Assembly: GCA_964387845.1 (NCBI GenBank)
Contig: CAYLXA010000001.1
Location: 345,038-409,037, forward strand
Length of the DNA: 64,000 bases
Direction: 5' to 3'
From: an uncultured bacterium
GTDB lineage: Bacteria; Omnitrophota; Omnitrophia; Omnitrophales; Abzuiibacteriaceae
Shown: piece by piece, positions 217-25,775 of the stretch
Numbering within the stretch: position 1 is the stretch's first letter
Layout: the number at the start of each line of letters is the position of its first letter
Translations under genes and position numbers: made by a program
The notes under the pieces: model-generated
Seen by the model: the letters and a program-made list of their open reading frames with translations, nothing else
The model's database searches: none
Told to the model about the DNA's origin: nothing

Positions 217-1890
217 CTACGAACGAACTTTATGATAGCGGCTTCTTAATAGCAAGAGAAAAGCAACATCTGCCGCTACCACGGCGGAAACATACCCCAC
301 ACCACCGCCGCCAAAACCATAACTATGAAGCCCGGCCGCTAAGACAAAATTCACGCCGTACCAGGCCATGATCACCGTCAAAAAGCAGACCGCGCACCAA
401 AACGCGGTCGCGAATGAATCCAGCCAGCCGGCAGTTCGCCCATGCATAACCGCCAAATACGCAAGTAACGCAATCAAAGCCCAGGTTTCCTTCGGATCCC
501 AGCCCCAAAACCGGCCCCATGAATAATTCGCCCAAACGCCGCCCAGGATTGTTCCGGCAGCGAGCAAAATAAGCCCAATTTGAAGCGAACGATAAAGAAA
601 AGTAATAAGCTCATCTAACGTTTTATTATTTTTTTTCTTAAAAGCATAGTGAAACACAACCACATGCGCGACACCCCAATTGAGCAAAAACGCACCATAG
701 CCGAGCGTAATCGTCAGCACATGAACTGTGAGCCAAAAATTGCTGCGCAAAACGGGAACCAAAGGCGAAATCGACTGGTCCAAAACCGCCGGTAAATTTT
801 CGCTGATCAAGAGCGCCAGAATGGATACGGACGCTGCGATCATCGGAATCAAATAGGACCTGTAAAAAGCAAAAAGAATGAGCGAGAAAAGCACAACACT
901 CCACGACACCCAAATGACTGACTCATACATGTTCGTCACGGGCGGACGCCCGGCGATTAAACAACGCAGCACAAAACCCAACGTATGAACCGCAAAAGCC
1001 GCGGTAAAAAATGAGAAAGCGATTTTATTGGCGCGTTTTTTATTTCTCAGTGTCAGCCAGATCAGAAGGCTGCCTAAATAAATTGCCCATGCCGTATGAA
1101 ACGGGCGAAATTTGAGATAGAAAAGCTCGTAATGAATCAACGTCCGGTCGATGATGATGTCGCGCGATTCCAGTAATTTTGTAAGCGCATTGGCGAAAAA
1201 TGAAGCAGATACGCCGGCCATTTCGATTTTTTCATCCCGCAAGCGGCCGAGGAGAAATGAAAGTGAGTTACTCGCTTCCTTCACATTCGCCGCGGGATAC
1301 ATGGTTTCCAAAATGGAAATACCGTGATCGCTCGCAAGCCCCTCAAGCGGAACCCACCCCGCCTGTGGATCATCGGGATGCGGAATAAAGCCCGGCATTT
1401 CTCCGCGCCCGATAGCCTGAAACAGACGCGCTCTGCTTCCGAGTTCAATCATTGCCTTTTCGTATTCGTTTAGTTTTTCTTTTCTGTCCTGCTTAGCCCT
1501 TACTTCACCTGTTCTTGCCGTAAAATTCAAATCGGCGAGAACAAGAGAAGGTGCGATTCTATTGTTTTCCAGATCCGCGGAGAAATCCTTTCGTAACTCG
1601 GGATTTGAAACAGGTAAAATAGCCTTCGCGCTCCAAATATCGGGGGCCGCAATCCATCGCCACACCAGTTCGGTTGGCTCCATTTTTTGAAAATGTGTTT
1701 TGCCGGTCATATAGAGGACGATTTCTTTCGCGAAACTCTCAAACGGCTTGACGCGGCCGCCCTGCTGAACCGGAATTCCACCCAAAACTTCGTGCGCATT
1801 ACCTTCGGATTGATTGGCAAAGGATTGGGGCGAGAAAAACATCGCCAAGAGAATGACTAAAGAAAGACTGACAATAAATTTACAATACAC
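217..1890 (-). CDS. ccsA: cytochrome c-type biogenesis protein CcsA/ResC (System II)
   Basis: Tryptophan-rich WWD motif WGWDPKETWALIALLAYLAVMHGR plus a polytopic C-terminal half. Signal-like KFIVSLSLVILLAMFFSPQSFA lies just after a GTG preceded by GGAAAGG. The ORF-track N-terminus (to 2001) is translation of an intergenic palindromic repeat, so I place the start near 1890. Confidence 0.8.
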   Translation of the reverse strand: MYCKFIVSLSLVILLAMFFSPQSFANQSEGNAHEVLGGIPVQQGGRVKPFESFAKEIVLYMTGKTHFQKMEPTELVWRWIAAPDIWSAKAILPVSNPELRKDFSADLENNRIAPSLVLADLNFTARTGEVRAKQDRKEKLNEYEKAMIELGSRARLFQAIGRGEMPGFIPHPDDPQAGWVPLEGLASDHGISILETMYPAANVKEASNSLSFLLGRLRDEKIEMAGVSASFFANALTKLLESRDIIIDRTLIHYELFYLKFRPFHTAWAIYLGSLLIWLTLRNKKRANKIAFSFFTAAFAVHTLGFVLRCLIAGRPPVTNMYESVIWVSWSVVLFSLILFAFYRSYLIPMIAASVSILALLISENLPAVLDQSISPLVPVLRSNFWLTVHVLTITLGYGAFLLNWGVAHVVVFHYAFKKKNNKTLDELITFLYRSLQIGLILLAAGTILGGVWANYSWGRFWGWDPKETWALIALLAYLAVMHGRTAGWLDSFATAFWCAVCFLTVIMAWYGVNFVLAAGLHSYGFGGGGVGYVSAVVAADVAFLLLLRSRYHKVRS

Positions 1891-1980
1891 CCCCTCACCC
1901 TTTCCCTCTCCCTGAGGGAGAGGGGAATTGTTTAACTCACTCCCTCTCCCGCTTGCGGGAGAGGGCTGGGGTGAGGGTTG
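1886..1980. repeat. compound palindromic repeat (ccctctccc...gggagaggg units inside an outer ccctcaccc/gggtgaggg stem)
   Basis: Two perfect inner palindromes, ccctctccctgagggagaggg and ccctctcccgcttgcgggagaggg, are enclosed by an outer inverted repeat. A related copy sits at 25715-25775. Confidence 0.7.
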
Positions 1981-2000
1981 ATTATTTAGAAATTGTCTCA

Positions 2001-3761
2001 TTAGATTTTCCTCATTTTGGGGTCACTGGTCTTAAGCGTCGAATATTGTTTTAAATAGAATAACAAAATAATTCCGACTATCATCACAATCGAACCCGCA
2101 TATTTAACCGGGATACCGGGGTCGCGCGCAACTGTAAAGACGGAAATATCCGGCTCGCCGGGCGTCACTTGATACGCAGATTGATACACTTTGAAACTAC
2201 GATGAACGAGCGGTTCATTCATCTGAATCAATTGATCGCGGCTGATTCCCTTCGCTACGTCTTTCAAAGTGACCTGGCTTTTGAAACTGGCGGGCCGGTT
2301 GGTGCCGGGATCCGTATCCATTAAAAAATCATTCAATTGAATCGTGAAGCCCAGCGGTTGCGTCTCAAGCCCATAAACAAAGTGCCAATCATGGCCGCCT
2401 AACTGAGTCCGTTCAACCTGGCCCTGCCGAAGCCATAAATTTTGAGATTCATTTCCGTCCGATAGTTCGATTTGAATGACGCGAGTTGCGCCTGTGCGCT
2501 CTGAAGCGAGAGGAATCGGAGAAAATGAACGTTCTACTTCGGCATGATGATAAAAAGCATCAACACTGAATTTAAAATCCATCCATCCGGTTTCAATTTG
2601 TTTGCCGATTTCGACAATGCCGTCCGTAAGCAAATCGCCCTTTTTAACTTGATAGCGCGGTAAACCGTCCGGATTATAAATGAACCGAAGTTCGTTCTTT
2701 GAAGCCGCTTGATCCGCTTGGCCGGCCATTTTCATCGCAATCCGCATTCCGGAAGCGCTTGGCGCCATGCCATGCACAGTCGGAAAATCGGGAAAATTCG
2801 CGAAAATGGTATGCTGTTCGTTCAATCCATCGCCTTCCAAGATCAATTCCACCGCGGGGTTCCGCCACTCCTTGGAACGGTCAATCAATTTGTTTTGATC
2901 TACAATCGCATCACGCAAAATACGGTTGAGCTTAGCGCGGATTTTAGTGCCTTGAAGCGTAAATGATTTTGGTTTGTCGGATTCCTTGATCGGAACCTGA
3001 ATGATTTTACCCGATTTGAGCATAAATTCTAAATGCGCAAATTCATCTCCCGATTTTTTCTTCGGTTTCTCGATGTCAATCGGTTGGCGCGCAAAATGAA
3101 TGACGGCGGCACCCATGGCTAGCTGATTTTTTTCGGGATTATCCAAGAAAAGCCAATCGTTGGTTTGCGCCATCGATCCGGATAGTGAAAATTGAATGGC
3201 GGGAGACCCTTTGGCGGATTCTTTGACAGATTCTCCCAAAACCGCTTTCGGGAAATCCTGCAAAACATGGATCTGAACGGAGCTTTTCGGCTTCAATTCC
3301 AATTTCCGGCGCCCGGACCACGGAAACACGCTTGGTTTATAATGCATGACAAAATGTTCTTTCAAATCGGGAGAGAAAATTTCAAGTATCGGATTCGCCA
3401 AAGTCATACGGCTTTCGGAATCGCCTTCCTGAATCGACACCTGCCCTTCAATCCCGAAACGCTGCGTGATCAAAGAACCAATGAGAATCAAGATGATTCC
3501 GAGATGGGTCAAAAGAAAACCGATGTGCTGCTTGCGCCACGGCCAACGGCTGATTGCGGATGCGGCTAAATTAATCGCCAGTAAAACCAAAACAATCGAA
3601 AACCAAGGAGTATAATAAATCAAGCGCTGGGCGGCTTCCGCACCGTGATACGACTCGATGAAGGTGCCGGCAGCCACAATAATCGCGACAGTTACAATAA
3701 GCAGAACCGCGCACCAAAGCGAAGCAAAAAATTTGAATAGGTCGGACAATAGATGATTCAT
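2001..3761 (-). CDS. ccsB: cytochrome c biogenesis protein ResB/CcsB (Ccs1, System II)
   Basis: N-terminal transmembrane helices (LWCAVLLIVTVAIIVAAG..., WFSIVLVLLAINLAASAISRWPW), a large periplasmic domain and a C-terminal transmembrane segment. It sits immediately upstream of ccsA, the classic resB-resC arrangement. Confidence 0.8.
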   Translation of the reverse strand: MNHLLSDLFKFFASLWCAVLLIVTVAIIVAAGTFIESYHGAEAAQRLIYYTPWFSIVLVLLAINLAASAISRWPWRKQHIGFLLTHLGIILILIGSLITQRFGIEGQVSIQEGDSESRMTLANPILEIFSPDLKEHFVMHYKPSVFPWSGRRKLELKPKSSVQIHVLQDFPKAVLGESVKESAKGSPAIQFSLSGSMAQTNDWLFLDNPEKNQLAMGAAVIHFARQPIDIEKPKKKSGDEFAHLEFMLKSGKIIQVPIKESDKPKSFTLQGTKIRAKLNRILRDAIVDQNKLIDRSKEWRNPAVELILEGDGLNEQHTIFANFPDFPTVHGMAPSASGMRIAMKMAGQADQAASKNELRFIYNPDGLPRYQVKKGDLLTDGIVEIGKQIETGWMDFKFSVDAFYHHAEVERSFSPIPLASERTGATRVIQIELSDGNESQNLWLRQGQVERTQLGGHDWHFVYGLETQPLGFTIQLNDFLMDTDPGTNRPASFKSQVTLKDVAKGISRDQLIQMNEPLVHRSFKVYQSAYQVTPGEPDISVFTVARDPGIPVKYAGSIVMIVGIILLFYLKQYSTLKTSDPKMRKI

Positions 3762-3861
3762 AACAGTTTAAGATAAGGGGTAATTATACATGATTGGCAT
3801 AGCACACGTCATTAGAAACCGAAATTAGTTTAAGCGGGAATTAATTAGACTGATTGAAGAA

Positions 3862-5949
3862 TCAGCCCCAAGCCAAGCTGATTTCGCAGGAAATTAAATG
3901 CGCAATGTAATCGCCAAATTCGGCGTTGGAATTGGCAAGATAGTAATAAAGTCCGTATTTTGGCTCAACAGTTACTTTTTCATTCACATTCCATTTCAAG
4001 CCCGCTTCCAAATCCAGTTTCCGATAATCAGATCCGATCGGCAAGCCTCTGGCAGTAAAATCATTAAAATTATCAGCACGGGCATATTGCACCGATTGAA
4101 TAAACGAAACATTTTCTTTCGGCATGTAGCTCGTACTCAATGTCCACGTATCCACATTCGCGTTAAAACCCGGCAGGTTACCGCTTAATGCGCCGGCGGC
4201 CGGAGTATTGGTGTTTGACATAAGCTTTGAATAGGAGCCCAGAATCATTACATTTTCAACGGGTTGCGATGTAAAATCAAAAATAAAATTATTTGAGGTT
4301 GTTTCCGTATCAACGCCTGCTAAATTTTCAATGTTCGTCCTGTAATTTGTATCGCGCCCGATAAACCGAAAAGACGGCTGAAGATATTTGGTTAATGTCA
4401 ATGCCAACCTCATCATGAATTCATTAATATAGGTGTGCTGGCTGTCAAAAAATGCAGATTTTGAAACTCCTGATGAAACAGTTTCGTAAATATCATCGTA
4501 ATCCGTCATTTTAAGAGTCCTTCGAAAATGCGAAGTAATCCGCACAAATGAAAACGGCGCTGCGTGCCCGCCTAAAGTCATCACGCCACGCTGGATGTTT
4601 GTAATCGTTTCGCGAATAAAAACTTCACTTGCACTCGCCCCCGACTGTCCGCCAACGCTATCCCGATTTTCAGACATCGGTAACCGGTCTTGTTCTAATT
4701 CCAATTCTGTATAAATAGCCGTCCGCGGAATCGCCGTAAATCTGGCCGTAATCCCTTGTCCCCACCTGAAACCGCTCATACGCGTATCGCTGACGTCAAA
4801 TCGGTTAATGCGATTATCGGGCGGATCTGTGGTCTCAACGTTATAAGTAGACTCTCCGCGGCGATTTAAAAATTCTGACTTAACCTTTGCGCCGATATTG
4901 AACCATTTTGTGACCAGGGCCATCATATTAGCAACCCAGGTGTTGGAATGAAAATGGTTGGTTGCGATATTGCCAAAACGGTTTTCAGCATTTGCAAATG
5001 AACGCGGATTACCATTTTCGTCAAACTCTCGGATATCTTCCCATTCTTTGTTATGGATTTGTGCATATCGATACCCAGCCGAAGTGTACACTTTGTCCTT
5101 TAAAAACCACTTCGCGATTCCAAATATTGAGCTGAAAGTGTGTGCTTCCGGCTTTTGCTGCTGCTTTCTAATTAATTTATTACCAGCCGTAGCATCAGAG
5201 TCAGCGCCAAAATATTTCTCGACGCGTGTGTTATCGGATTTCACAATTTCAAATTTTTGCTCGCTTTTAAGTTCATAACCTTTAACGGTATGGTCGACTT
5301 TCAAGCCAAACGTATCCGCCACTTCGCTCACATCCTGATAGGAAGGCGCTATTTTCCGCGTCACACCGCTCTGAACCACGTCTCCCCATGTTAATCTGGA
5401 TTTTGCACCATTTTTAAATTCGCGCTCATACCCAATCATTACTTTTGGAAAATCCGGTATATCCAGCTCCGCTTCAACGCCGAAATGGCCGATGTCCAGT
5501 TCTAAATCTTTAACCGCGTCGCCAACCCGGAGTGTGTAGTCGCCCCGCGTTAGATTAAACGGATGATAAACACCGCCCGTCCGGTCATAATATTTCCGGA
5601 ACTCTTGGTAATCAAATTTGATTTGTCCCACTTCTTTTTTCTTGATGATGACAACGCCTTCGTAATCATTGTCCGCGGGGATTGCCTTGCCTTCCATTTT
5701 TACCGTAATATCATTCGGAAGCCTGTAAAAAGAATAAAATTCCTCAACGCCTGCGGCGTAATTGTTGCTCTTCCAATGATGCGCTCTGAATTTATCGGCT
5801 TCCCCGTCCACAAAAATATAACGGACCGGAAGAGGTGTGATATCAAGATGATTTTCTGAATTATTTTCCGAAGCTGCGTATAGAGATTGAGTGACGGCCA
5901 AAGAGACATACGCTAAAACGAATATTAACTTCCAATATGAGCGTCTCAT
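3862..5949 (-). CDS. secreted putative outer-membrane beta-barrel (porin-like) protein
   Basis: Start refined to MRRSYWKLIFVLAYVSLAVTQSLYA (signal peptide) with RBS AGGAGG just upstream. About 696 aa. G/Y/N/T-rich with alternating hydrophobic pattern and no transmembrane helices. Co-operonic with multiheme cytochromes. Confidence 0.45.
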   Translation of the reverse strand: MRRSYWKLIFVLAYVSLAVTQSLYAASENNSENHLDITPLPVRYIFVDGEADKFRAHHWKSNNYAAGVEEFYSFYRLPNDITVKMEGKAIPADNDYEGVVIIKKKEVGQIKFDYQEFRKYYDRTGGVYHPFNLTRGDYTLRVGDAVKDLELDIGHFGVEAELDIPDFPKVMIGYEREFKNGAKSRLTWGDVVQSGVTRKIAPSYQDVSEVADTFGLKVDHTVKGYELKSEQKFEIVKSDNTRVEKYFGADSDATAGNKLIRKQQQKPEAHTFSSIFGIAKWFLKDKVYTSAGYRYAQIHNKEWEDIREFDENGNPRSFANAENRFGNIATNHFHSNTWVANMMALVTKWFNIGAKVKSEFLNRRGESTYNVETTDPPDNRINRFDVSDTRMSGFRWGQGITARFTAIPRTAIYTELELEQDRLPMSENRDSVGGQSGASASEVFIRETITNIQRGVMTLGGHAAPFSFVRITSHFRRTLKMTDYDDIYETVSSGVSKSAFFDSQHTYINEFMMRLALTLTKYLQPSFRFIGRDTNYRTNIENLAGVDTETTSNNFIFDFTSQPVENVMILGSYSKLMSNTNTPAAGALSGNLPGFNANVDTWTLSTSYMPKENVSFIQSVQYARADNFNDFTARGLPIGSDYRKLDLEAGLKWNVNEKVTVEPKYGLYYYLANSNAEFGDYIAHLISCEISLAWG

Positions 5950-5959
5950 GACGGCCTCC

Positions 5960-6742
5960 TTAATATCGAAGATGATCGTCAAAATTGGAACCATGAACCG
6001 CCGTGTGGCACTTCGCGCTGAAGCAAGTGCCTTGCGCAAGGCGCGTAGCATGATTAGAACTTCCGATGAACGGAAAATTATCTTGTGTATGACAACGTAA
6101 ACATAAATTACTGTCGCGGGCAATCAGCATTTTGTCAGTAATCGAGCCATGAACTTGATGACATGTCGTGCAGCCTTCGCGCAGCGCTTCATGCTCCCAC
6201 ACAAACGGGCCGCGTTGTTCTTTATGACATTTAAAGCATGCTTCGTTGACATCTTCCATGGTTGTGGATGACCATGGCCTGACTTCCGGTCCGTGCGGAC
6301 TATGGCAGTCCGAACAACTCATCTTTCCTTCGAGCACGGGATGGTGGTGCGGAAGATTAAATTCTACTTTTTTATCGGTATGACACGCAAAACAGACGGA
6401 CGGATCTTTTCTGGGATTAATGATTTTCTTATCTTGGCTGGATTCTTTTAACTTATCATCCATATCGACATGTAGACTTCCGGGGCCATGACAAAGCTCG
6501 CAGCCTTGTACCGCCATATCTTTTCCGGGAATGCTGATACGGGAATGGGTCGAAAGTTCAAACTCTTTGACTTCTTTTTCATGGCAAGCGGCGCAAGTAT
6601 CCATACCGACATACTCCGCGCCTTCTATGTTATGAACTTCGAGAACTTTTTGGAGGGCTTCTTCGTCGTATTTGCAAGAAGTGACACTGAGAACGAGGGA
6701 TAATACCGCAAAACTAACAAAAATGCTGGCTTTTTGATTCAT
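5960..6742 (-). CDS. multiheme c-type cytochrome lipoprotein (7 CXXCH + 1 CX4CH)
   Basis: Lipobox LSVTSC. Heme motifs CAACH, CELCH, CFACH, CSDCH, CFKCH, CTTCH, CLRCH and the atypical CFSAKCH. 260 aa. Confidence 0.85.
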   Translation of the reverse strand: MNQKASIFVSFAVLSLVLSVTSCKYDEEALQKVLEVHNIEGAEYVGMDTCAACHEKEVKEFELSTHSRISIPGKDMAVQGCELCHGPGSLHVDMDDKLKESSQDKKIINPRKDPSVCFACHTDKKVEFNLPHHHPVLEGKMSCSDCHSPHGPEVRPWSSTTMEDVNEACFKCHKEQRGPFVWEHEALREGCTTCHQVHGSITDKMLIARDSNLCLRCHTQDNFPFIGSSNHATRLAQGTCFSAKCHTAVHGSNFDDHLRY

Positions 6743-6875
6743 GCTAGCGGTTTATGATTTGTGTTTGCGTACGAATTATATTGTTTTATTAAGAAATGAC
6801 AATCGCTTTTATGGCAGTGAAATTATCGACATTTCCTGAAAAACTTTATGTGACATCTGTCACTTAAATTGACGT

Positions 6876-8366
6876 TTATGCAGGGCCGCCGGTATGGCAA
6901 TCCATGCACGATATTTCTTTCCATGATTCTTGATCGCCGTCGGGATGCTTAAATTCCAGCCCATCTACCGAACTTTCCATAGCGCCAAATGGACCTTGAG
7001 CAATAATCCCGTGGCAAATTTTGCAATCATTTGAAATGATTTTACCCTGCGGGCTTTCATGCTTGCCGTCATGGCAACGGAAACAACCTGGCGCCATCAT
7101 GTGCCCGATATTGTCCGGATACGCTTTCCAAGACACATTCATACCCGGGAAAAAGTTGGATTGATAAATTTCAACAATGGCTTGAATAGAACGGTCTAAC
7201 TTGTTTTTCTGATTCTGGAAAACTTCCGGATAATTATCCTCGTAAAATTTTTCCAACCGCGACCGAATCTGAGCAGCCGCATCATCATGAGACTCGTATT
7301 TGCCGACCAAAACCTTGACGGCTTCGCGTTTCATATAAGGGAGCTCGGCGGCAATATCGCCTTTTCCCATTGCTTTATTGACAGACCTGGAAGGCGCTTC
7401 ATATTGATGGCTGGGCCGATTGTGGCAATCGATGCAGTCCATTTTTCGGATTTCGCCTTGCGGCGGTTTGCTAGCAGAAAATTTTGACTCACTGTCTACA
7501 AAATATTCTTCGCGGCCATCCTCATAAACCACTTTGACCCATGGAATTATTTGACGTTTTTCGTCAGTTGAAACATAGTAAACTTTGTTCGCAGGGTTCA
7601 CATGCCAATGGCTTCCATGCGCCTTTTCCCCGCCGCCCACATACATCAGCATGCGGGTGTTCCAAAGTGTGTTACTTTCGTCTGACATGAAATATTGATG
7701 ATCCTTCTCAATGGCTCCAAAAAACTTCTCGGGCCAATGACAATGTTCGCATGTTTCTTGAGCGGGCCGTAAATTCTTGACCGGCGCCGGAATGGGTTTG
7801 GAATATTTCTTGAAAATAGATGAATAAATTTGATGGGCGCCGTTAATTTTAGACTTCAAATAATAATCAGGCCCTGGGCCGACATGGCATTCAACGCAGG
7901 AAACGCGGGCATGCGGCGATTTGTGATACGCGGTAAATTCCGGATGCATGACTTGATGGCAGGTTTTTCCGCAAAATGTCACGGATTCCGAAAATTGATA
8001 AGCCTTGTAAGTTCCAAACATAGAAAAAATCAAGAAAACCGTGAAAAACCCAATGCCGATTAACGCCCAGCGTTGATGGGCCGGATTATTAAAATCAATC
8101 TGCGGAAACTTGCGGACATAACCTCTTTTCCGGCGCGCCGAACGTTCCCGCCAAGCGCCAAAAAAAATTAAAAAAAGAGTGAGTATAAGGAAGGCCGGAA
8201 GCCCGACATAAGTGATGGATTGCGTGTAGGGATTAATTTCTTTTGAAAGGAATTCGAGGACAATTAAAACTAAGATAGCAGAGAAAATGACAATGGAAAG
8301 AATTGCGCCGATAATGCTGAGCCAATTTTGAAAAAGGCTTTTGTTTGAATTTGGCAATTCAGACAT
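6876..8366 (-). CDS. membrane-anchored multiheme c-type cytochrome (3 N-terminal transmembrane helices; 6 CXXCH + 1 CX3CH), ImcH-like architecture
   Basis: Three hydrophobic helices in the first ~120 aa. Then CGKTCH (CX3CH), CVECH, CEHCH, CIDCH, CFRCH, CKICH, CMDCH. 3 TM plus ~7 hemes matches my memory of inner-membrane quinol-oxidising cytochromes such as Geobacter ImcH. Confidence 0.75.
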   Translation of the reverse strand: MSELPNSNKSLFQNWLSIIGAILSIVIFSAILVLIVLEFLSKEINPYTQSITYVGLPAFLILTLFLIFFGAWRERSARRKRGYVRKFPQIDFNNPAHQRWALIGIGFFTVFLIFSMFGTYKAYQFSESVTFCGKTCHQVMHPEFTAYHKSPHARVSCVECHVGPGPDYYLKSKINGAHQIYSSIFKKYSKPIPAPVKNLRPAQETCEHCHWPEKFFGAIEKDHQYFMSDESNTLWNTRMLMYVGGGEKAHGSHWHVNPANKVYYVSTDEKRQIIPWVKVVYEDGREEYFVDSESKFSASKPPQGEIRKMDCIDCHNRPSHQYEAPSRSVNKAMGKGDIAAELPYMKREAVKVLVGKYESHDDAAAQIRSRLEKFYEDNYPEVFQNQKNKLDRSIQAIVEIYQSNFFPGMNVSWKAYPDNIGHMMAPGCFRCHDGKHESPQGKIISNDCKICHGIIAQGPFGAMESSVDGLEFKHPDGDQESWKEISCMDCHTGGPA

Positions 8367-8403
8367 TTTTTACTTTTTTCCCGTATCGATACAGTGCCGA
8401 CTG

Positions 8404-8967: not shown

Positions 8968-9294
8968 ATTTTGGTGGCTCCTGTTTAGCTTCCTACTTTG
9001 CACTCTTATATACGAAATGCCCGCTCGTGCATGTGACATTCATCACTGCCCCAGCGTAACTTTAAAACAAAAATCACACTCTAATTAGAACGCTGGGACT
9101 GGACTCATTTCCTCTAGACTCACGCTTTTCTCAATGAAAATGAGTCCTGCACGAATTTTATCAATAAATGAAGATAGAAAGCAATTGCCAATAATTCTCA
9201 CAAATTATCGTAATTTGCCGTCAATTTATGAAGAAAATAATTGACCCATATCAGCGAAGTGCTAGAGTAAACAAAAAGTTGAGGAGGTGCTCAC

Positions 9295-9882: not shown

Positions 9883-10089
9883 ATGGCACAAGGTACAGTC
9901 AAGTGGTTCAATAACGAAAAAGGTTATGGATTTATTGCTCCTTCATCTGGCGGAAAAGATGTGTTTGTTCATCATACCGCAATTCAAGGCGATGGTTACA
10001 AGACTTTGAATGAAGGCGAGCAAGTAAACTTTGAAGTCGTTAGCGGACCCAAAGGCGACCAAGCGTCTAACGTTGTCAGACAGCGTTAA
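9883..10089 (+). CDS. cold-shock protein (CspA family)
   Basis: [20 protein letters not shown]...VFVHHTAIQ...GDQASNV, a canonical cold-shock domain with RNP1/RNP2 motifs. Confidence 0.95.
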
Positions 10090-10111
10090 TTCGTCGTCAC
10101 AATCTAGTAAC

Positions 10112-16299: not shown

Positions 16300-16315
16300 A
16301 GGAAGGTAATGCTAA

Positions 16316-17597: not shown

Positions 17598-18810
17598 TCG
17601 ATAAATAAGGCAAAATCAGAAGAATCGAAAGCGAAAACAGCGCTGAAATCAAAATCAGCGGTTTCAGTCCGATGATAGTAAACAGAAACCCGCCCAAAAC
17701 GTCGGAACCCATCAAACCTAAGTTTAGAAATGACGACAAAAACGCAAACACCGTTCCGCCGGCGTATAAGGGTGATACTTTTGCGGCCAAATTGAGAACT
17801 GCCAAGTACATAACCGCCTGAATTGCCGCAAGTAAAAATGTAGAAATAATGGTAATCTGCCGGGCAGCGCTCGGATTGCCGACGACAAACGGCGTGAAAT
17901 AAATATAATAAAATAAAGTCACCGCAACGCCGAGAAAAATCGCAAGTACCAGCAGTTTCCGAATGGGATATTCGGAAAATTTCCGGCCGAAAATAATAGC
18001 ACCGATCAGGCTTGAAAAACCTGCCACCGCCTGAACCAGCCCCAAAAATTCGCCGTCGAATTTCAAAACATCCACTGAATAATAAAAGAAAGGTGACCCG
18101 AATGACGGTGAAAAGTTCCACAAAAAGAAAAAGGCCGCCAGCAGCCACAAATCTCTTTTCCGGAAAAGTTCTTTCAGGTGTGAATAATCCATTTTCTCAA
18201 GCCGGTCTGCTTTTTCTTCTTTGATTAAGAAAAAGGCCAGGACTGCGGTGATCAGCGGAAAAATGGCGGTGATTTGAAAGATCGATTGATATGAAATGGT
18301 ACCGCGCCGGGCTTGCTCCGAAATATAGCCGCCGAAAAGTGCGGTGAAAATGATTGCCGTGTAAACCGCCGACCACTGGATAGATTGAAACTTCCCCGTC
18401 AAATTAAACGGCTTGCCGCTTTCTACCATCAATCCGTCCGTCACGACATCCTGAAATGCGTAAGCCATGTACGAAAACGTGATGAAAGCCAATAAAATCA
18501 GCGCGCTGTATTGTTTGAGGGAAGCGAGAAAAATCCAAATGCAGCAAGCGACCAAAGAGGCTGCAATCAAGTAAGACTTCCGGCGGTAGCCGAAAATCGG
18601 ATACGAATCCGAAAAATAGCCCCAAAGCGGTTTGATCACCCAAGCCAGGACGATGACAGCTTGAAAATACGACATGCCGGCCGGCGTAATATTCAGGACC
18701 TCTTTTAATAAAAATTTAATGGCTAAATTCGGGAGCGCCGCCAATCCGTTCGTTGAAAAAAAGTAGACGGCGGAAAAGAGAATGCAAAACTTCAGGTAGG
18801 TTTTCTTATC
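17497..18810 (-). CDS. MFS-type transporter, folate-biopterin transporter (BT1) family-like
   Basis: Start refined to MDKKTYLKF. 12 predicted transmembrane segments. GYFSDSYPIFGYRRK loop motif typical of BT1/MFS. The 3' end overlaps the convergent dus gene by ~100 nt. Confidence 0.65.
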   Translation of the reverse strand, partial: DKKTYLKFCILFSAVYFFSTNGLAALPNLAIKFLLKEVLNITPAGMSYFQAVIVLAWVIKPLWGYFSDSYPIFGYRRKSYLIAASLVACCIWIFLASLKQYSALILLAFITFSYMAYAFQDVVTDGLMVESGKPFNLTGKFQSIQWSAVYTAIIFTALFGGYISEQARRGTISYQSIFQITAIFPLITAVLAFFLIKEEKADRLEKMDYSHLKELFRKRDLWLLAAFFFLWNFSPSFGSPFFYYSVDVLKFDGEFLGLVQAVAGFSSLIGAIIFGRKFSEYPIRKLLVLAIFLGVAVTLFYYIYFTPFVVGNPSAARQITIISTFLLAAIQAVMYLAVLNLAAKVSPLYAGGTVFAFLSSFLNLGLMGSDVLGGFLFTIIGLKPLILISALFSLSILLILPYLSINEELTWVERHVRKFVDRILRLIPASNSNQNTH

Positions 18811-18817
18811 CATCAAT

Positions 18818-20989
18818 CTAGCGGCGGGCGCCCTCAAGTGCCCGCACTGCGGGAAGGTACATTTTTTCGATGTATTCGATCAGCATCCGCTCCATCGAAA
18901 AATCCTGCATCATCGTCTTCATAGAATCTTTCATCATCTTGACCCAGCCGGGCGAATAAGAAAGCTTCTTCGGCCGTTCAAAGTAAAGCGGCAGGACCGT
19001 ATTCTCAAGCAACTGGAACAGTTCTTTGCGATCCTTCTCGCCGCTTGCTTCATCGCCTGAGCCGAAAATCCAGCCGTTTTCACCATGCCGGACCCCTTCG
19101 GCAACCCAGCCGTCCGAAATTGAAATATTCAGAATTCCATTGGCGCCTGCTTTCATACCGCTTGTGCCGCTGGCTTCCAACGGGCGAATCGGGTTGTTGA
19201 GCCAAACATCAACACCTGATACCAGCCGCCTGGCAAGTGCAATATCATAACCCTCCACAAACATAATTTGAGCCTTAAACTTGCGCTGCTGAGCCCGCTT
19301 CCGAAGACGGCTTGATATTTCATAGATATGCTTGATCTGATCGCGGCCTTGATAATTGTTGGGGTGCGGTTTCCCGGCAAAAATAATATGCACCGGCTGT
19401 CCATATTTTTTGTATGCGTTTTCCAAAAATGAAAAAAGGCGTTCTTCATCGTCGAGAAAAAATGTGATGCGTTTATACCCCGCGAAGCGGCGCGCAAAAC
19501 CGATCACAAATGCATTTGGATCAAGAAGCGCATGAATTACGTCCGCGACTTCCTCGGGACTTTTGTTGGCACGCAGCAAATGATAGGCTAGTCTTTCGCG
19601 AAGCTCCACGATCATGCGCTCTTTCCGGTATAAATGGACTTTCCACAACACTTCATCGTCGATGGAATTGATTTTTGCCGGCCCGCCTGCCTTATCGACA
19701 ATTCCTTGAATCTCGGGAGATGTCCAATATGGAATATGAACGCCGTTTGTGATCGAATCAATCGGCGGCGTAAAAGATTTTCCGTCTTGATTGCCCCAGG
19801 CGTAATGCCACATCTTTCGGCATACCTCTCCGTGCAGCTTGCTGACACCATTTCTAAAAACACCGGAAAATAAAAGAGATAGTTTGGTCATGTCGAATTC
19901 GTCTTTTTCGTTCCGCGCACAATTAAAAATAACTTCCTGTTCATCGGGTGATAAAAATTTAGCCAAGTAAGGCCCAAGCTGGCGGCGGACGAGCGCTTCA
20001 TTGAAACGTTCATTACCTTCCGGAACCGGCGTATGGGTTGTGAAACCGATGATTTTTGCGGCGCGCTCGCGCGCTTCTTGAAATGGCAAATGATCGTTTG
20101 CCATGATCTGCCGGATTACTTCGAAAGCGGCAAACGCAACGTGGCCTTCGTTTAAATGATAAACCGCAGGCTGATATCCGGCTGCTTCGAGTGCCCGGAC
20201 ACCGCCGATCCCGAGCACGAGCTCCTGCTCAATGCGGCGTTTGCGCTCATCATCGTATTGCTTTTCAGATGCATAAAGGCGCCTCGATAAATGCCTGTCG
20301 TGAACCGGATTTTGGCTGACGTTTGTATCGAGCAGCAAAAGCTCGACGCGGCCGACGCGCACTTTCCACACTTTGGCGTAAACAATCCGGTCATCGACTG
20401 TGATATCGATAAGCAAATCCTCTGTCGTGCCTTTTCGTTTAACTGCTTCAAGCGGCAAATATTCCCTCACGTGTGCACGCGGCGGAACAATGGAATCATA
20501 AGCCACCTGCATTTCGCCTTCATCCGTCACCTTTTGCTCGTAATATCCCTGAAGATAAAAAAGCCCGACAGCAACGAGCTTAATGCCCAAGTCACTTGCG
20601 CCGCGGACATGGTCACCCGAAAGGATTCCGAGGCCGCCGGAATAAATTTTGAGCGTATCAAAACCGTACTCCATTGAAAAATAGGCCACGGTTTTATCTT
20701 TTAATTCGGGATAACGTTCGGAAACAATTGTTTTGGATGGATTGATATATTTTTGATACTCGTCTTTGACTTTCTCGAAAGTTCTTTGGTAGGACTTGTC
20801 GATCACAAGTTCGGCAAAACGTTTTTCATAATGAATCGGATTTTCGGCGCGAAGTGCTAAAAAACGGTAGGGATTTTTATTGGCAAGCGACCAAATGTGC
20901 GGGCTGAAGCCGTGGAAAAGCTGTTTGGCGTCCGGACTCCACTCATTCCAAAGATTAGAAGCAATTTCTTTTAGAAAGCGGTCCATCAA
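18818..20989 (-). CDS. glgP: alpha-glucan (glycogen/maltodextrin) phosphorylase, GT35
   Basis: 723 aa. GFTTHTPVPEGNERF, NGVSKLHGEV, ...GTSGMKAGANG (PLP lysine region); full-length match to the alpha-glucan phosphorylase family. Confidence 0.9.
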   Translation of the reverse strand: MMDRFLKEIASNLWNEWSPDAKQLFHGFSPHIWSLANKNPYRFLALRAENPIHYEKRFAELVIDKSYQRTFEKVKDEYQKYINPSKTIVSERYPELKDKTVAYFSMEYGFDTLKIYSGGLGILSGDHVRGASDLGIKLVAVGLFYLQGYYEQKVTDEGEMQVAYDSIVPPRAHVREYLPLEAVKRKGTTEDLLIDITVDDRIVYAKVWKVRVGRVELLLLDTNVSQNPVHDRHLSRRLYASEKQYDDERKRRIEQELVLGIGGVRALEAAGYQPAVYHLNEGHVAFAAFEVIRQIMANDHLPFQEARERAAKIIGFTTHTPVPEGNERFNEALVRRQLGPYLAKFLSPDEQEVIFNCARNEKDEFDMTKLSLLFSGVFRNGVSKLHGEVCRKMWHYAWGNQDGKSFTPPIDSITNGVHIPYWTSPEIQGIVDKAGGPAKINSIDDEVLWKVHLYRKERMIVELRERLAYHLLRANKSPEEVADVIHALLDPNAFVIGFARRFAGYKRITFFLDDEERLFSFLENAYKKYGQPVHIIFAGKPHPNNYQGRDQIKHIYEISSRLRKRAQQRKFKAQIMFVEGYDIALARRLVSGVDVWLNNPIRPLEASGTSGMKAGANGILNISISDGWVAEGVRHGENGWIFGSGDEASGEKDRKELFQLLENTVLPLYFERPKKLSYSPGWVKMMKDSMKTMMQDFSMERMLIEYIEKMYLPAVRALEGARR

Positions 20990-21010
20990 AACTCGAAGGT
21001 TAGAATGAAA

Positions 21011-22108
21011 TCAGATTCTGACTTTTGTTTGAATCTTTTCGATAATGGCCTGCGCCATTTCTTTGGTGCCGACTGCCGTCGGGTCATCACGATTTTGTTT
21101 CAAATCATAGGTAACGCTCTTTCCTTCACGAATGACAGCTGCTACCGCATTTTCAAGTTTTTTTGCGGCTTCTTCTTCACCGAGATGCTGCAGCATCAAA
21201 ACGCCTGACAGAATAACAGCGGTTGGGTTTACTTTGTTCAAGCCCGCATATTTCGGCGCAGAACCATGCGTCGCTTCAAAAATCGCCGCGCCGCCGATTC
21301 CAATGTTAGCGCCCGGCGCAATCCCGAGCCCGCCGATAAGCCCCGCGCAAACGTCCGAAATAATATCACCATAGAGATTCGGGAGCACGATTACATCATA
21401 CAGCTCGGGTTTTTGAACGAGCTGCATGCACATATTGTCCACAATCCGGTCTTCAAATTCGATATTGGGATATTTTTTTGCCACTTCGCGCGAAACTTCA
21501 AGCCACAAACCGTCCGAATACTTCATGATGTTAGCTTTATGGACAGACGTCACTTTTTTGCGCTTATACTTCACGGCATAATCAAAAGCAAATTTGACGA
21601 TACGCTCCGTTCCGGAAACAGAGATGGGCTTAATGCTCACGCCTGAATCCGGGCGAATCGGCTGCTTGGAAAGAGACGAGCAAAGATCGAGAACCTGCTT
21701 TGCTTCCGGCGTTCCCTTCTGGAACTCGATGCCGGCGTATAAATCTTCAGTATTTTCACGGACAATTACCAAATCGATGTTTTTATATTTGGAACGGACG
21801 CCTTCATAAGATTTACAGGGACGAAGGCAAGCAAACAGGTCAAACTTTTTGCGGAGTGCTACATTGACGGAACGAAAACCTTTTCCGACCGGGGTTGTAA
21901 TGGGCGCTTTGATGGCAACTTTGTTCTTTTCGATGGATTTGAGAAGTTCATCGGGAAGCGGCGTTCCCACCTTCTCCATAATATCGACGCCGGCTTCTTG
22001 GATATCCCAATTGATTTTGACGCCCGTCGCATCAATGCAGCGCTTAGCAGCTTCGGCAAGCTCAGGGCCCGTTCCATCACCGCGGATGAGTGTAATATCG
22101 TAAGCCAT
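21011..22108 (-). CDS. icd: isocitrate dehydrogenase (isocitrate/isopropylmalate dehydrogenase family)
   Basis: Start refined to [67 protein letters not shown]. Assigned icd rather than leuB from the acnA/aceBA context. Confidence 0.85.
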
Positions 22109-22199
22109 TTTTAATTTCCCTTCTCTTGCATGAATTGCTATGATGAGCGCTTCGGAAAGTGAAATCGTAACAAATCTATGCGGGTATTTCAACAGATTA

Positions 22200-22345
22200 T
22201 CCGCCTACGCAGAAAATACTTTTGTCAGCCTGCGTAGGACGGATCCTACGAAGCTCCGCTGCTATAGACGGAGCGTAGTAGGATTACCATTGCTTCGGCG
22301 GATTCCGCCGACAAGTAAGGTATCACGGGCCTTAAGCCCGCGAGG
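22200..22345 (+). promoter_or_regulatory. highly structured leader with several hairpins sharing CCTACG arms, upstream of the IMPase gene
   Basis: Hairpins cctacgcag(N17)ctgcgtagg (22204-22238); cctacgaagctccg/cggagcgtagtagg (22245-22282, 12 of 14 pairs); cggcggattccgccg (22296-22310); cgggccttaagcccg (22327-22341). These sit in the divergent icd/IMPase intergenic region. Confidence 0.3.
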
Positions 22346-22351
22346 CTTCAT

Positions 22352-23167
22352 ATGAATAAAATAAAGACGACGTTAGAAAAAGCATTGCTCGCAGGCGGCG
22401 TTTTGGTTGAGAAAGCTTTTTATCAGCCAAAGAAAATCGAGTACAAAAGCCGCGCGAATTTAGTCACCGAAACGGATAAAGCAGCCGAACGAAAAATTTT
22501 GGACGTGATTTTGAATATATTTCCAAATCATACGATCCTCGCCGAAGAAACCGAGAGTAGAAATCCGAAGTTTACATCGAATACTTTTATCAATCCGAAT
22601 CCAAAATCCGCAAAATGGATCATTGATCCGATTGACGGAACGACCAACTTTGCGCACGGTCTTGCCCTGGTTAGTGTCAGTATTGGTTTTGAAGAAAACG
22701 GCGTTTTAAAATTAGGCGGCGTTTGGAATCCAATTTTGAAAGAAATGTTCTTCGCCGAAAAAGGAAAAGGCGCTTACTTAAATGGTAAACGGATCAGCGT
22801 ATCAAAAACGCCCAAATTAGAATCGTCGCTGCTCGTCACCGGTTTTCCGTACGACAAATCCCGCTATACGCACAACACAATCATGAATGTGATGAAAGAA
22901 TTTTTACTAGCATCGCACGGCATCCGCCGGCTCGGCTCAGCCGCAATTGACCTATGTTATGTTGCCTGCGGGCGCTTCGACGGTTATTGGGAATCCAAGC
23001 TTCAGCCCTGGGATCAGGCGGCAGGTGCATTAATCGCAGAAGAAGCCGGGGCGAAACTTTCTAACTTTAAAGGAAAGCGTTACAGCATTTACGAGCAAGA
23101 AACGCTCGCGACAAACGGCAAAATTCATTCGGAGATGTTGAAGGTATTGAAGAAGTTGTGGAAATAA
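22352..23167 (+). CDS. inositol monophosphatase family protein (SuhB-like)
   Basis: ILAEETE, WIIDPIDGTTNFAHGL, LVTGFPYDK and WDQAAGALIAEEAGA are IMPase signature motifs. Confidence 0.9.
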   Translation: MNKIKTTLEKALLAGGVLVEKAFYQPKKIEYKSRANLVTETDKAAERKILDVILNIFPNHTILAEETESRNPKFTSNTFINPNPKSAKWIIDPIDGTTNFAHGLALVSVSIGFEENGVLKLGGVWNPILKEMFFAEKGKGAYLNGKRISVSKTPKLESSLLVTGFPYDKSRYTHNTIMNVMKEFLLASHGIRRLGSAAIDLCYVACGRFDGYWESKLQPWDQAAGALIAEEAGAKLSNFKGKRYSIYEQETLATNGKIHSEMLKVLKKLWK

Positions 23168-23168
23168 C

Positions 23169-23253
23169 TTAGTGCTAAGGGGTAAGTGATAAGTGGTAAG
23201 TAGAAAAACGATTTTACTTATCGCTTAGCACTTACCACTTATCACTCGTTAGT
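23169..23253. repeat. hairpin repeat family 1 (GTGATAAGTGGTAAGT arms), copy 1
   Basis: agtgctaaggggtaagtgataagtggtaagt...acttatcgcttagcacttaccacttatcactcg forms a long imperfect inverted repeat between convergent genes. Related copies at 30852-30925 and 35006-35082. Confidence 0.75.
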
Positions 23254-23257
23254 CGAA

Positions 23258-23923
23258 TTAAACGTTCGCTGCTAAATCAGACCACGGATATTCGCCGGTC
23301 CAATGATAACCGGGATTATCCACGTGATTTGGTACCAAGCATCCGTAGATGTTGCCCAAACCATACACCATGCGGCTCCACCAGAACCACACGCCTTTTC
23401 CGATACCTTTGACCACATTGCCTTCTTTGCTTCCCTTGACAATCTGGCCCGGAACTTCCACGATGCCCGTAAGGCCGTTGGCGAAACCATGTATCAATTT
23501 TCTGCCGTAAGGCTTCACGCCTTCTTTTAGATTCGGCTTGAAAATACTGTACGCGGTTCCCCATTCCCACGAACGTTCGGCGTCAAACGGAATACCAACG
23601 CCCTGGTTGGATGCGGGGCTGGCAGCCCAGAATCCAAATAGCTCGGTGAATCCTGAAACTTCGCGGCCGGCAAAATGGCCAAAACCTTTGAAAAATCCAA
23701 GAATAGTGCCGACTGCTTTTGAAGCTGGTTTATTCTTGATCACACTCAAGCCTGTGTCATATCCTTTGTAAATCTGCACCGGTACTTCAACAATACCTGT
23801 GACGATATCAATGACACCGCGGACAGCTCGCTGACCCATTCCTTCGACAATTGGGCCTGCGCTAGCAATTCCGCACGGCAATACTAGTGAAAGTGCAAAA
23901 ACAAGCGCAATAACTCTACGCAT
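23258..23923 (-). CDS. secreted protein with two tandem TIGR04073-like modules
   Basis: Signal peptide MRRVIALVFALSLVLPCGIASAG. Repeated RAVRGVIDIVTGIVEVPVQI / HGFANGLTGIVEVPGQI and GTILGFFKGFGHFAGREVSGFTELF / GIGKGVWFWWSRMVYGLGNIY motifs. Paralogous to 14567..14914. Confidence 0.5.
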   Translation of the reverse strand: MRRVIALVFALSLVLPCGIASAGPIVEGMGQRAVRGVIDIVTGIVEVPVQIYKGYDTGLSVIKNKPASKAVGTILGFFKGFGHFAGREVSGFTELFGFWAASPASNQGVGIPFDAERSWEWGTAYSIFKPNLKEGVKPYGRKLIHGFANGLTGIVEVPGQIVKGSKEGNVVKGIGKGVWFWWSRMVYGLGNIYGCLVPNHVDNPGYHWTGEYPWSDLAANV

Positions 23924-24112
23924 GTTTCCTCCTCTTGGTTGGTTAATGAGTTAAATATAATCAGACCGTTTAATATTTTAAGATAAAGCCGGCCTACCTT
24001 AAATGACGGCTTTACGGCGCAAAACTTGAAAGAAAGGATTTTATGCTTTGATGACAACACTTAATTCTTTACTTAATAAAAAGGCGGATTTTATCGTTAT
24101 AGTAAGCTGACT

Positions 24113-25714
24113 ATGACATCTCTAAATAACCTAAAATCAGACGGAATCGAAATTAAAGGCGCTCTTACGCCTGCCTTCTCCGAAATCCTAACGCCTGAAG
24201 CCGTCAAATTTGTTGCGAGCCTTGAAAAAAAATTTGGGGCCCGTCGGCTTGAATTATTAGAAAAGCGCAAGGTCAGGCAAGCAGAAATCAACGCCGGCAA
24301 AATGCCGGACTTTCTAAGCGAAACCAAATCCGTCCGCGACAGCGACTGGAAAGTTGCACCGATCCCGAAAGACCTCCTCGAACGCAAAGTCGAAATCACA
24401 GGGCCCGTGGAACGCAAAATGATGATTAATGCGCTTAATTCCGGCGCCAATGTGTTCATGGCCGATTTCGAAGATTCCAACTCACCGACTTGGCAGAACA
24501 ACATCGAGGGGCATATAAATTTGCGCGACGCCGTCAATCGTACGATATCATTCAAAAACCCTGACGGAAAAGAATACCAACTGAACGATAAAATCGCGAC
24601 TTTGCTGGTTCGGCCGCGCGGCTGGCATTTAAACGAGAAACACATGACTGTGAGCGGCAAAGAAATCTCCGCTTCCTTGTTTGATTTTGGGTTTTTCTTT
24701 TTCCATAACGCGAAAACTTTGATCCAAAAAGGAACAGGCCCCTATTTTTATTTACCCAAAATGGAAAGCCACTTGGAAGCGCGTTTGTGGAATGATGTGT
24801 TTAATTTCGCACAGGATGAAATCAAAATCCCGCGCAGCTCAATTCGCGCGACGGTTTTGATTGAAACCATCTTAGCTTCGTTCGAAATGGATGAAATTTT
24901 GTACGAACTGAAAGATCACTCCGCAGGCCTCAATTGCGGACGCTGGGATTATATTTTCAGCTTCATCAAGAAATTCCGAGAGAAACCGGATTTCCTGCTT
25001 CCCGACCGTGCGCAAGTGACAATGGATAAGGCTTTCCTGAAGGCCTATGTCGAACTTTTGATCAAAACATGCCACCGCCGCGGCATTCACGCGATGGGCG
25101 GCATGGCGGCACAGATTCCTATTAAATCTGACCCCATTGCCAATGAAGCGGCGCTCGAAAAGGTCCGTCAGGACAAGCTTCGCGAAGTAAAAGCTGGCCA
25201 CGACGGCACTTGGGTTGCGCATCCGGGACTTATTCCGATCGCCATGGATGCCTTCAATCAAAATATGAAAGGTGCTAATCAATTAAATGTCGCACGTTCC
25301 GAAGTTCAAATTACGGCAAAAGATTTGCTCACCGTTCCAAAAGGCGATATCACCGAAGCCGGCCTCCGCAAAAATGTGAATGTCGGAATTCTCTACATCG
25401 AATCGTGGCTGCGCGGCTTGGGATGTGTACCACTTTATTACTTGATGGAAGACGCTGCAACTGCGGAAATCTCGCGCACGCAAGTGTGGCAATGGATCCG
25501 GCATCACGCGAAAATGACAAACGGTGTTCAAGTGACAGCTGAGTTGGTACAGAAAATCGTGAAGGAAGAACTTGCCGATATGGAAAAATCGGTTGGTGTT
25601 GAGAAATTTAAATCCGGAAAATTTAAACTTGCTTCAGAAATTTTCTACGAAATGAGTACTCGAAAAGAATGTCCTGACTTTTTAACGATCGAAGCTTATA
25701 AACATTTAGATTAA
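24113..25714 (+). CDS. aceB: malate synthase A
   Basis: The N-terminus and GPVERKMMINALNSGANVFMADFEDSNSPTW region are collinear with E. coli AceB; 533 aa. Confidence 0.95.
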   Translation: MTSLNNLKSDGIEIKGALTPAFSEILTPEAVKFVASLEKKFGARRLELLEKRKVRQAEINAGKMPDFLSETKSVRDSDWKVAPIPKDLLERKVEITGPVERKMMINALNSGANVFMADFEDSNSPTWQNNIEGHINLRDAVNRTISFKNPDGKEYQLNDKIATLLVRPRGWHLNEKHMTVSGKEISASLFDFGFFFFHNAKTLIQKGTGPYFYLPKMESHLEARLWNDVFNFAQDEIKIPRSSIRATVLIETILASFEMDEILYELKDHSAGLNCGRWDYIFSFIKKFREKPDFLLPDRAQVTMDKAFLKAYVELLIKTCHRRGIHAMGGMAAQIPIKSDPIANEAALEKVRQDKLREVKAGHDGTWVAHPGLIPIAMDAFNQNMKGANQLNVARSEVQITAKDLLTVPKGDITEAGLRKNVNVGILYIESWLRGLGCVPLYYLMEDAATAEISRTQVWQWIRHHAKMTNGVQVTAELVQKIVKEELADMEKSVGVEKFKSGKFKLASEIFYEMSTRKECPDFLTIEAYKHLD

Positions 25715-25775
25715 CTTCCCTCACCCCTCCCTCTCCCTCAGGGAGAGGGATAAAGGGAGAGGGGAATTAAGGGAG
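25715..25775. repeat. ccctctccc/gggagaggg palindromic repeat, copy 2 (aceB-aceA intergenic)
   Basis: ccctcacccctccctctccctcagggagagggataaagggagaggggaatt shares the perfect ccctctccctcagggagaggg palindrome and gggagaggggaatt with the copy at 1886-1980. Confidence 0.7.

Follow-up and report, generated by a model that had tools for sequence, protein, structure and literature searches.

BoxC/TMECO-type palindromic repeats at the resB/ccsA and aceB/aceA junctions of an Omnitrophota genome

The TMECO triplex motif of Escherichia coli has the form CCCTCNCCC N3-6 GGGNGAGGG N3 GGGNGAGGG, and the element that carries it was earlier named BoxC and PIT (Holder et al. 2015, PMC4666352). The same E. coli element is called HPG1/HPG2 by Kaplan et al. 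2016 (PMC5100583). Holder et al. counted 3610 copies in 262 proteobacterial genomes, and the genome paper of Enterobacter sp. 638 (PMC2869309) reports 100 copies of the related form CCCTCTCCCXX(X)GGGAGAGGG. Circular dichroism and nuclear magnetic resonance data exist for oligonucleotides of the E. coli element (PMC4666352, PMC5100583). The subject of this work is a pair of G/C-rich palindromic loci, copy 1 at the resB/ccsA junction and copy 2 at the aceB/aceA junction, in a 64-kb stretch of DNA from an Omnitrophota genome; this whole stretch is called the window, and the data from the source genome in this analysis are these 64 kb. We consider it likely that both loci carry the BoxC/TMECO repeat as a non-autonomous element, which was gained recently at the two sites and is tolerated there with at most side effects on expression. 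To our knowledge, the function of BoxC and its means of spread have remained unknown since the 1990s.

Two loci of one repeat family

An earlier note on this DNA, made from the sequence alone, had described compound palindromes at the two sites, and these palindromes are real. On the plus strand copy 1 reads, at 1892-1977, CCCTCACCC TTT CCCTCTCCC TGA GGGAGAGGG GAATTGTTTAACTCACT CCCTCTCCC GCTTGC GGGAGAGGG CTG GGGTGAGGG. It holds two perfect palindromes, of 21 nt (1904-1924) and 24 nt (1942-1965), and an outer 9-bp inverted repeat (1892-1900 and 1969-1977) encloses both of them. Copy 2 reads, at 25718-25764 of the same strand, CCCTCACCC CT CCCTCTCCC TCA GGGAGAGGG ATAAA GGGAGAGGGG and is followed by AATT. 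It has the 21-nt palindrome of copy 1 with the loop reverse-complemented, and GGGAGAGGGGAATT is common to copy 1 (1916-1929) and copy 2 (25755-25768). The repeat units are as follows.

1892 to 1924, minus strand: TMECO-type unit A of copy 1, CCCTCTCCC TCA GGGAGAGGG AAA GGGTGAGGG
1942 to 1977, plus strand: TMECO-type unit B of copy 1, CCCTCTCCC GCTTGC GGGAGAGGG CTG GGGTGAGGG, an exact fit to the published TMECO pattern
25718 to 25764, plus strand: copy 2, a compact four-arm hairpin form with a TMECO-like unit readable on either strand

The two units of copy 1 are inverted and stand head to head, with a 17-nt spacer at 1925-1941. The compact four-arm form of copy 2 also occurs in the Omnitrophica genome L028 and at the loci L023, L062 and L106. 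The pattern CCCTCTCCC N2-12 GGGAGAGGG matched three times in the window and not once in 100 dinucleotide shuffles. A relaxed search of the 64 kb, with 2 mismatches permitted, revealed no further copy. The tally is thus two loci (three to four units) in the 64 kb of the window and none in 22 kb of a close relative.

We compared both loci with the published repeat. The TMECO pattern is matched exactly by 1942-1977 on the plus strand and by 1924-1892 on the minus strand. Copy 2 departs from it in the second loop, which has 2 nt (minus strand) or 5 nt (plus strand) and not 3. Unit B and a Burkholderiaceae copy (L070) agree in every base over 39 nt, and unit A differs from copy 17 of E. coli MG1655 essentially in the loops only. 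A blastn search with copy 1 found matches in 1356 of 5426 complete E. coli genomes, all of them chromosomal. The best of these, an inverted doublet of 87 nt with 78.7% identity, is located between wzc and wcaA in strain 14EC033; this doublet and one from Caldithrix (L056) align with copy 1 arm for arm. Taken together, the fit to the pattern, the E. coli matches and the doublet alignment give good support to the view, based on sequence, that both loci are copies of the known BoxC/PIT/TMECO repeat and not a new family. The assignment of the two loci to one family is therefore upheld, and the family is far larger than the earlier note supposed, as seen from the TMECO pattern, E. coli, plasmids and the IMG/VR collection.

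Both transcripts are predicted to fold strongly. The predicted hairpin has -62.5 kcal/mol (z = -6.6) on the transcribed strand of copy 1 and -37.4 kcal/mol (z = -3.5) on that of copy 2. No terminator-like site, i.e. a G/C-rich hairpin followed by a T-run, was found on the mRNA strand of either copy, and an intrinsic (Rho-independent) terminator was rejected on this ground; copy 1 has only weak terminator-like matches in the antisense direction. In Rfam the element matched none of the families at the gathering threshold, and the search in E-value mode returned only generic hairpin matches to miRNA-precursor models, far below threshold.

The two gene junctions

The genes at copy 1 lie on the minus strand, with a partial CcsB match in NCBIfam that is below the family cut-off. 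In relatives, genes for ResB (PF05140) and a cytochrome c assembly protein (PF01578) stand in the same order. The following features define the junction.

1999 to 2013, minus strand: conserved ccsA start, with Shine-Dalgarno GAGGA (2013-2009), resB stop TAA (2003-2001) and overlapping ATG (2001-1999)
1882 to 1995, minus strand: inserted segment of 114 nt without counterpart in L121, encoding QFLNNQPSPQPSPASGRGSELNNSPLPQGEGKGEGVYC, as delimited by alignment with L121 and L122 and by frame analysis
1888 to 1890, minus strand: alternative in-frame GTG directly 3' of the element, which would give a 25-residue signal peptide (MYCKFIVSL...SFA)

Copy 1 had been placed between resB and ccsA. This is correct in so far as it lies downstream of the resB stop; yet it is also downstream of the conserved ccsA ATG at 2001-1999 and hence inside the ccsA frame. 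The proposal that the copies supply a Shine-Dalgarno sequence does not hold for ccsA, where GAGGA (2013-2009) is conserved and lies upstream of copy 1. Alignment indicated that L121 and L122 share this layout of Shine-Dalgarno and start.

L121 is a close relative, with a CcsA of 89% identity; its resB stop and ccsA ATG overlap (cTGATG), and its CcsA starts with MRKVIAITTLFISALTVFSPQSFA. Past the 114-nt segment the CcsA of the window resumes with KFIVSLSLVILLAMFFSPQSFA. A direct repeat AATTT (1994-1990 and 1880-1876) bounds the segment; this boundary was read by eye and not set by statistics. When the 114 nt and one AATTT are taken out, a 24-residue signal peptide is left, the same length as in L121. 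None of the six normal-length relatives (L121, L332-L336) has the element at this junction, and in all of them the resB stop overlaps or abuts the ccsA start. A metagenome scan with the CcsA alignment yielded mostly relatives at 30-40% identity, and the junction survey was therefore drawn from these six individual genes.

The length of the inserted segment is a multiple of 3. In each orientation it is free of stop codons in one of three frames, and it occupies that frame. An IPVQ motif could be recognised in 106 CcsA homologues; 18 of these carry long in-frame N-terminal extensions, most of which resemble translated repeats. An out-of-frame insert was found in none of the 6 sampled normal-length ccsA genes; frame-blind insertion predicts an insert in at least about 41% of such genes, and the observation has a P of about 0.04. 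The earlier note held that the open reading frame (ORF) track mistranslates copy 1 as part of CcsA. Read-through is likelier than mistranslation, since the 114 nt lie in the sole open frame, 18 of the 106 homologues are extended in frame and no out-of-frame insert was seen. The N-terminal extension of CcsA through copy 1 is thus probably real, as judged from the reading frame, while the evidence from frame bias is suggestive and not conclusive. The GTG at 1890 could possibly serve as a second initiation site. In annotation, simple trimming of the 594-residue CcsA call is not advisable, as the repeat lies downstream of the conserved start codon.

A different compound palindrome is present at the same position of ccsA in L122, and also in L123 and L124; it too is in frame (TGTCATTCCCG...CGGGGATGACA). 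In L122 this insert (10010-10110) has the form TGTCATTCCCGTGAATGCGGGAATC...ATCCCCGC...GCGGGGATGACA and translates as IPVNAGIYNPDPRSKYAGMT. Many of the N-terminal extensions of CcsA are of a type HCEE...LRSLAMT. In this clade, palindromic repeats seem to accumulate at the start of ccsA.

The genes at copy 2 encode malate synthase A and isocitrate lyase, according to NCBIfam. Here the relevant features are the following.

25715 to 25765, plus strand: 51-nt segment from the aceB stop to the native-like Shine-Dalgarno of aceA, delimited by comparison with L125, L126 and L127
25769 to 25783, plus strand: aceA start, with the Shine-Dalgarno-like AAGGGAG (25769-75) and an ATG at 25781; the N-terminus MQNIPH is conserved in close homologues

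The conserved N-terminus MQNIPH confirms the aceA start. The aceB-aceA spacers of L125, L126 and L127 (11, 37 and 18 nt; AceA about 80% identical) contain no element. In L125 the Shine-Dalgarno follows directly 3' of the stop (TAA-AGGGGG-ccttc-ATG). In the window the junction has the sequence gATTAA[51 nt of element]ATTAAGGGAGacgccATG, and a direct repeat ATTAA (25710-14 and 25766-70) bounds the 51-nt segment, again in a reading by eye. Removal of the segment and one ATTAA yields a junction of stop then Shine-Dalgarno like that of L125. Copy 2 is thus, by sequence comparison, a gain between the aceB stop and the native Shine-Dalgarno of aceA. The claim that copy 2 provides this ribosome-binding sequence was not borne out: AAGGGAG (25769-75) is 3' of the repeat core, in the same layout as in the element-free relatives.

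In the Omnitrophica genome RIFCSPLOWO2_01_FULL_45_10b (L028) a compact four-arm copy at 1138-1181 extends into the final codons of the upstream ORF (1141..2082, minus strand) and lies 15 nt ahead of the start of the next gene. This repeat may contribute coding sequence.

Distribution, alleles and other repeats

The distribution of the element was analyzed in a scan of one genome per species with the pattern CTCACCC N2-3 CCCTCTCCC N3-6 GGGAGAGGG. Chance matches are negligible, because the pattern has 25 specified bases. The scan found at least 120 loci in hosts from about 20 phyla, as taken from the record titles, so that the element is by no means unique to the two sites in the window. Hosts among the matches listed belong to the Alpha-, Beta- and Gammaproteobacteria, Planctomycetota, Verrucomicrobiota, Acidobacteriota, Myxococcota, Chloroflexota (including closed Dehalococcoidia chromosomes), Cyanobacteria (Leptolyngbya PCC 6406, Nostocaceae), Vampirovibrionales, Desulfobacterota (Geomonas), Nitrospirota, Elusimicrobiota, Omnitrophota, Calditrichota, Bacteroidota and others. 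The host range is therefore much wider than that published by Holder et al.: it extends from the Proteobacteria to about 20 phyla. Contamination or mis-binning was rejected as the cause of this cross-phylum signal, since isolates and complete chromosomes are among the matches (Leptolyngbya PCC 6406, Geomonas propionica, closed Dehalococcoidia genomes). The genes that flank the window copies are 80-89% identical to those on other Omnitrophota contigs. Named homologues of CcsA and AceA mostly carry the annotation Omnitrophota, which is the most likely phylum of the source.

Outside the arms there is no conservation between genomes; the loops are variable and the flanks unrelated. Clustering of ORFs at the 120 loci listed showed no gene family, and no transposase-like gene, that recurs beside the element. 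The clusters contained only common housekeeping families such as ABC transporter ATPases, short-chain dehydrogenases and enoyl-CoA hydratases. The sequence CTCGGTCGGYC stands directly 5' of the C-rich arm in Pseudomonas (L003, L019, L057, L097) and in E. coli (L337, L339); it is missing from the window copies and from most other phyla. Given this flank, the mobile unit may be longer in Gammaproteobacteria.

The E. coli TMECO element has been claimed to lack any association with plasmids or phages (for plasmids, Holder et al., PMC4666352). The description "not on plasmids or phages" fails for the element at large, which is carried by 337 records of a plasmid collection, 77 of them conjugative, and by at least 120 contigs of IMG/VR; curated phage genomes gave only 2. 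The plasmid hosts include Klebsiella, Aeromonas, Sinorhizobium, Enterobacter, Azospirillum and others. Carriage on plasmids is thereby added to what is known of BoxC.

Presence or absence of the element differs between relatives, and its loci are locally unstable: the element is missing from orthologous junctions in relatives, and E. coli has filled, empty and deletion alleles. In E. coli K-12, TMECO copy 19 is located in the pstB-pstA spacer (L337), inside the pstSCAB operon. Comparison of this filled allele with an empty one (L340) defines a clean 92-bp segment with copy 19, which is bounded by the 8-bp direct repeat AACCGTGT. A third copy of AACCGTGT is found just past the core in the pst spacer, and roughly half of the ranked E. 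coli genomes are without the 92-bp segment. Between yjdP and phnP (L339, L341-L343) there are nested deletion alleles of -70, -104 and -119 nt. Their junctions are in repeated C-rich or G-rich arms, which is consistent with slippage between the arms of neighbouring units. The flanks of the wzc-wcaA doublet differ from those of most E. coli, and for this reason it is unusable as a filled/empty pair. In one E. coli genome (H60) IS1 has inserted into the ilvC-ppiC spacer, where a TMECO copy is located.

The direct repeats at the boundaries of the three filled/empty sites have 5 (AATTT), 5 (ATTAA) and 8 bp (AACCGTGT), so their length is not fixed. A classical target-site duplication was not established, given these lengths and the lack of a repeat at ilvC-ppiC. 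Insertion and excision by microhomology or slippage would fit the alleles better than a classical transposase, although the matter is not settled. The boundary repeats, together with the presence on plasmids, hint at microhomology-based insertion and excision combined with horizontal transfer. The clean filled and empty alleles at the two window sites and at E. coli pstA-pstB are raw material for work on this mechanism.

The window contains further repeats and RNAs. A second intergenic palindromic family occurs at 23171-23246, 30851-30922 and 35006-35063, between tandem minus-strand or convergent genes; in its hairpins a series of heptad-like units (TAAGTGN)n pairs with the complementary sequence. 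Imperfect palindromes that are long and A/T-rich (AATTCAAATTTCAAA...) at 46306-46432 and 29083-29171, with 57-nt arms that are 77% complementary, may represent a third repeat family. A c-di-GMP-I-GGC riboswitch aptamer was identified at 58063-58137 on the plus strand (62.9 bits; gathering threshold 59), and a tRNA gene is located at 36315-36388, also on the plus strand.

Alternative explanations and comparison with known systems

The element could be a cis-acting intercistronic RNA element, in which the hairpins keep 3' exonucleases away from the upstream cistron or determine the cistron ratio and the G-rich arms give ribosome-binding sequence. Protection of an upstream cistron by a hairpin, or the setting of a cistron ratio, is familiar from the REP sequence in malE-malF. 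Both window copies are inside operons, as are the E. coli copies at pstA-pstB and wzc-wcaA, the predicted hairpins are very stable, and the G-rich arms are within 20 nt of the aceA ATG and abut the in-frame GTG in ccsA. However, the element is absent at the same junctions in six and three relatives respectively, which still have either closely coupled genes or a short spacer. The repeat core does not include the native Shine-Dalgarno sequences, and the orientation of the units relative to transcription is opposite at the two copies. Copy 1, moreover, breaks a formerly overlapping stop/start pair and creates no coupling. The mRNA strands have no hairpin with a T-run and, as far as the follow-up study by Maher's group is cited in PMC4666352, the E. 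coli element has neither promoter nor terminator activity. A regulatory model is for these reasons a poor fit, and we judge it unlikely that the copies act as the dedicated elements of RNA stability or translational coupling that the earlier note proposed; an incidental effect of the hairpins on the mRNA is possible. The element is better labeled in annotation as a BoxC/TMECO-type repeat than as a regulatory RNA.

Selection might instead act on the DNA. An intrastrand purine-motif triplex, or a switch between G-quadruplex and hairpin, would then stall replication or repair, and the element would be kept for local variation. Every unit has the three-arm C-G-G layout that a triplex needs, each G-rich side at the same time fits the quadruplex motif (G3N3)x4 (a potential of the sequence only), and formation of triplex and of G-quadruplex or hairpin in vitro has been published (PMC4666352; PMC5100583). 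The nested deletions and replaced flanks at E. coli loci agree with such instability, but any hairpin or direct-repeat element should be just as unstable. For the E. coli element, neither duplex DNA nor work in vivo revealed a triplex (PMC4666352), and selection for variability is a weak, second-order argument; a structural role of this kind seems quite unlikely to us. Even less can be said for the view that the core is the recognition site of a widespread trans-acting factor (a REP-type transposase, a nucleoid protein or a nuclease) that mobilises or uses the element. A core conserved over about 20 phyla with variable loops and flanks, inverted doublets that resemble REPINs, direct repeats at three filled/empty boundaries (5, 5 and 8 bp) and presence on 337 plasmids would all agree with such a factor. 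Against this, no gene recurs beside the element among the 120 loci listed, the GTAG-type motif of REPs is absent and the variable length of the direct repeats is unlike a typical transposase footprint. We know of no trans-acting factor for BoxC, and we regard this explanation as very improbable. A bolder view takes in the whole range of hosts: a three-arm motif of ~33 nt, near-identical in some 20 phyla with its loops and flanks free, would be kept by a universal partner or by structure-driven self-copying, could be absorbed in Omnitrophota as an in-frame, translated coding insertion, and would count among several palindromic families by which the CcsA N-terminus is reshaped time and again. 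We hold this to be doubtful.

The preferred explanation is that of a tolerated, non-autonomous BoxC/TMECO repeat. The element is a G/C-rich unit of roughly 33 nt, with one C-rich and two G-rich arms, which occurs alone, as a four-arm hairpin or as an inverted doublet. As non-autonomous DNA it would have been gained in this lineage at both sites and would persist where it does little harm. Copy 1 can be understood as a 114-nt insertion just past the third ccsA codon, in the sole stop-free frame. Translation from the conserved, resB-coupled ccsA start most likely reads through it, which would lengthen the cytoplasmic n-region of the signal peptide or anchor of CcsA by about 38 residues. Copy 2 occupies the stretch that separates the stop codon of aceB from the native Shine-Dalgarno of aceA. 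Both transcripts are expected to form a very stable hairpin, and an effect on mRNA decay or ribosome passage would be a by-product and not a conserved regulation: the hairpin may slow ribosomes early in ccsA or protect the 3' end of aceB, in each case as a side effect.

Several observations speak against this explanation. A 33-nt core that is so similar across phyla is hard to reconcile with the near-neutrality that we infer, and the similarity suggests a constraint such as a structure or a binding partner. The filled and empty alleles of E. coli ilvC-ppiC differ by a replaced segment, with no clean insertion and no direct repeats. Translation through copy 1 is deduced from the sequence and not observed. 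The test for frame bias was done on just 6 junctions, which were not sampled at random, and the in-frame state may have arisen by chance, at odds of about 1 in 9, in which case translation would begin at GTG 1890.

Among known systems, BoxC/TMECO is the closest. The window copies have the same three arms, CCCTCTCCC, GGGAGAGGG and GGGTGAGGG, and the same loop lengths; single and inverted-doublet forms occur, the sites are between genes of one operon, presence or absence differs between relatives, and there is no linked transposase. They differ in the host, which is Omnitrophota here and 262 proteobacterial genomes in the literature, and in the lack of the 5' flank CTCGGTCGGYC of the E. coli and Pseudomonas copies. 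Copy 1 also lies inside a reading frame, whereas the MG1655 copies are all reported as intergenic. Copy 2 is intergenic and copy 1 is not; "always intergenic" is thus a description of the MG1655 copies and no structural requirement of the BoxC family.

REP, BIME and REPIN sequences are likewise short G/C-rich extragenic palindromes, often inverted doublets inside operons, and they can stabilise the upstream mRNA. Their sequence is unrelated, however: no GTAG-type 5' motif adjoins any unit of the window, the third G-rich arm has no counterpart in REPs and no RAYT gene was seen nearby. Bacterial miniature inverted-repeat transposable elements (MITEs; Correia, ERIC/IRU, RUP) resemble the element in being non-autonomous, hairpin-forming, co-transcribed with their neighbours and variable between strains. 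MITEs have terminal inverted repeats matched to the transposase of an insertion sequence (IS) and a target duplication of fixed length, while the direct repeats of the window and E. coli elements measure 5, 5 and 8 bp, and we know of no IS that would be their partner. Rickettsia palindromic elements (RPEs) have a length of 100-150 bp and are not known outside Rickettsia; they enter protein-coding genes without a shift of the frame, and the protein gains an additional stretch of peptide. Copy 1 resembles them as an in-frame palindromic insertion; its sequence and its host are unrelated to those of the RPEs.

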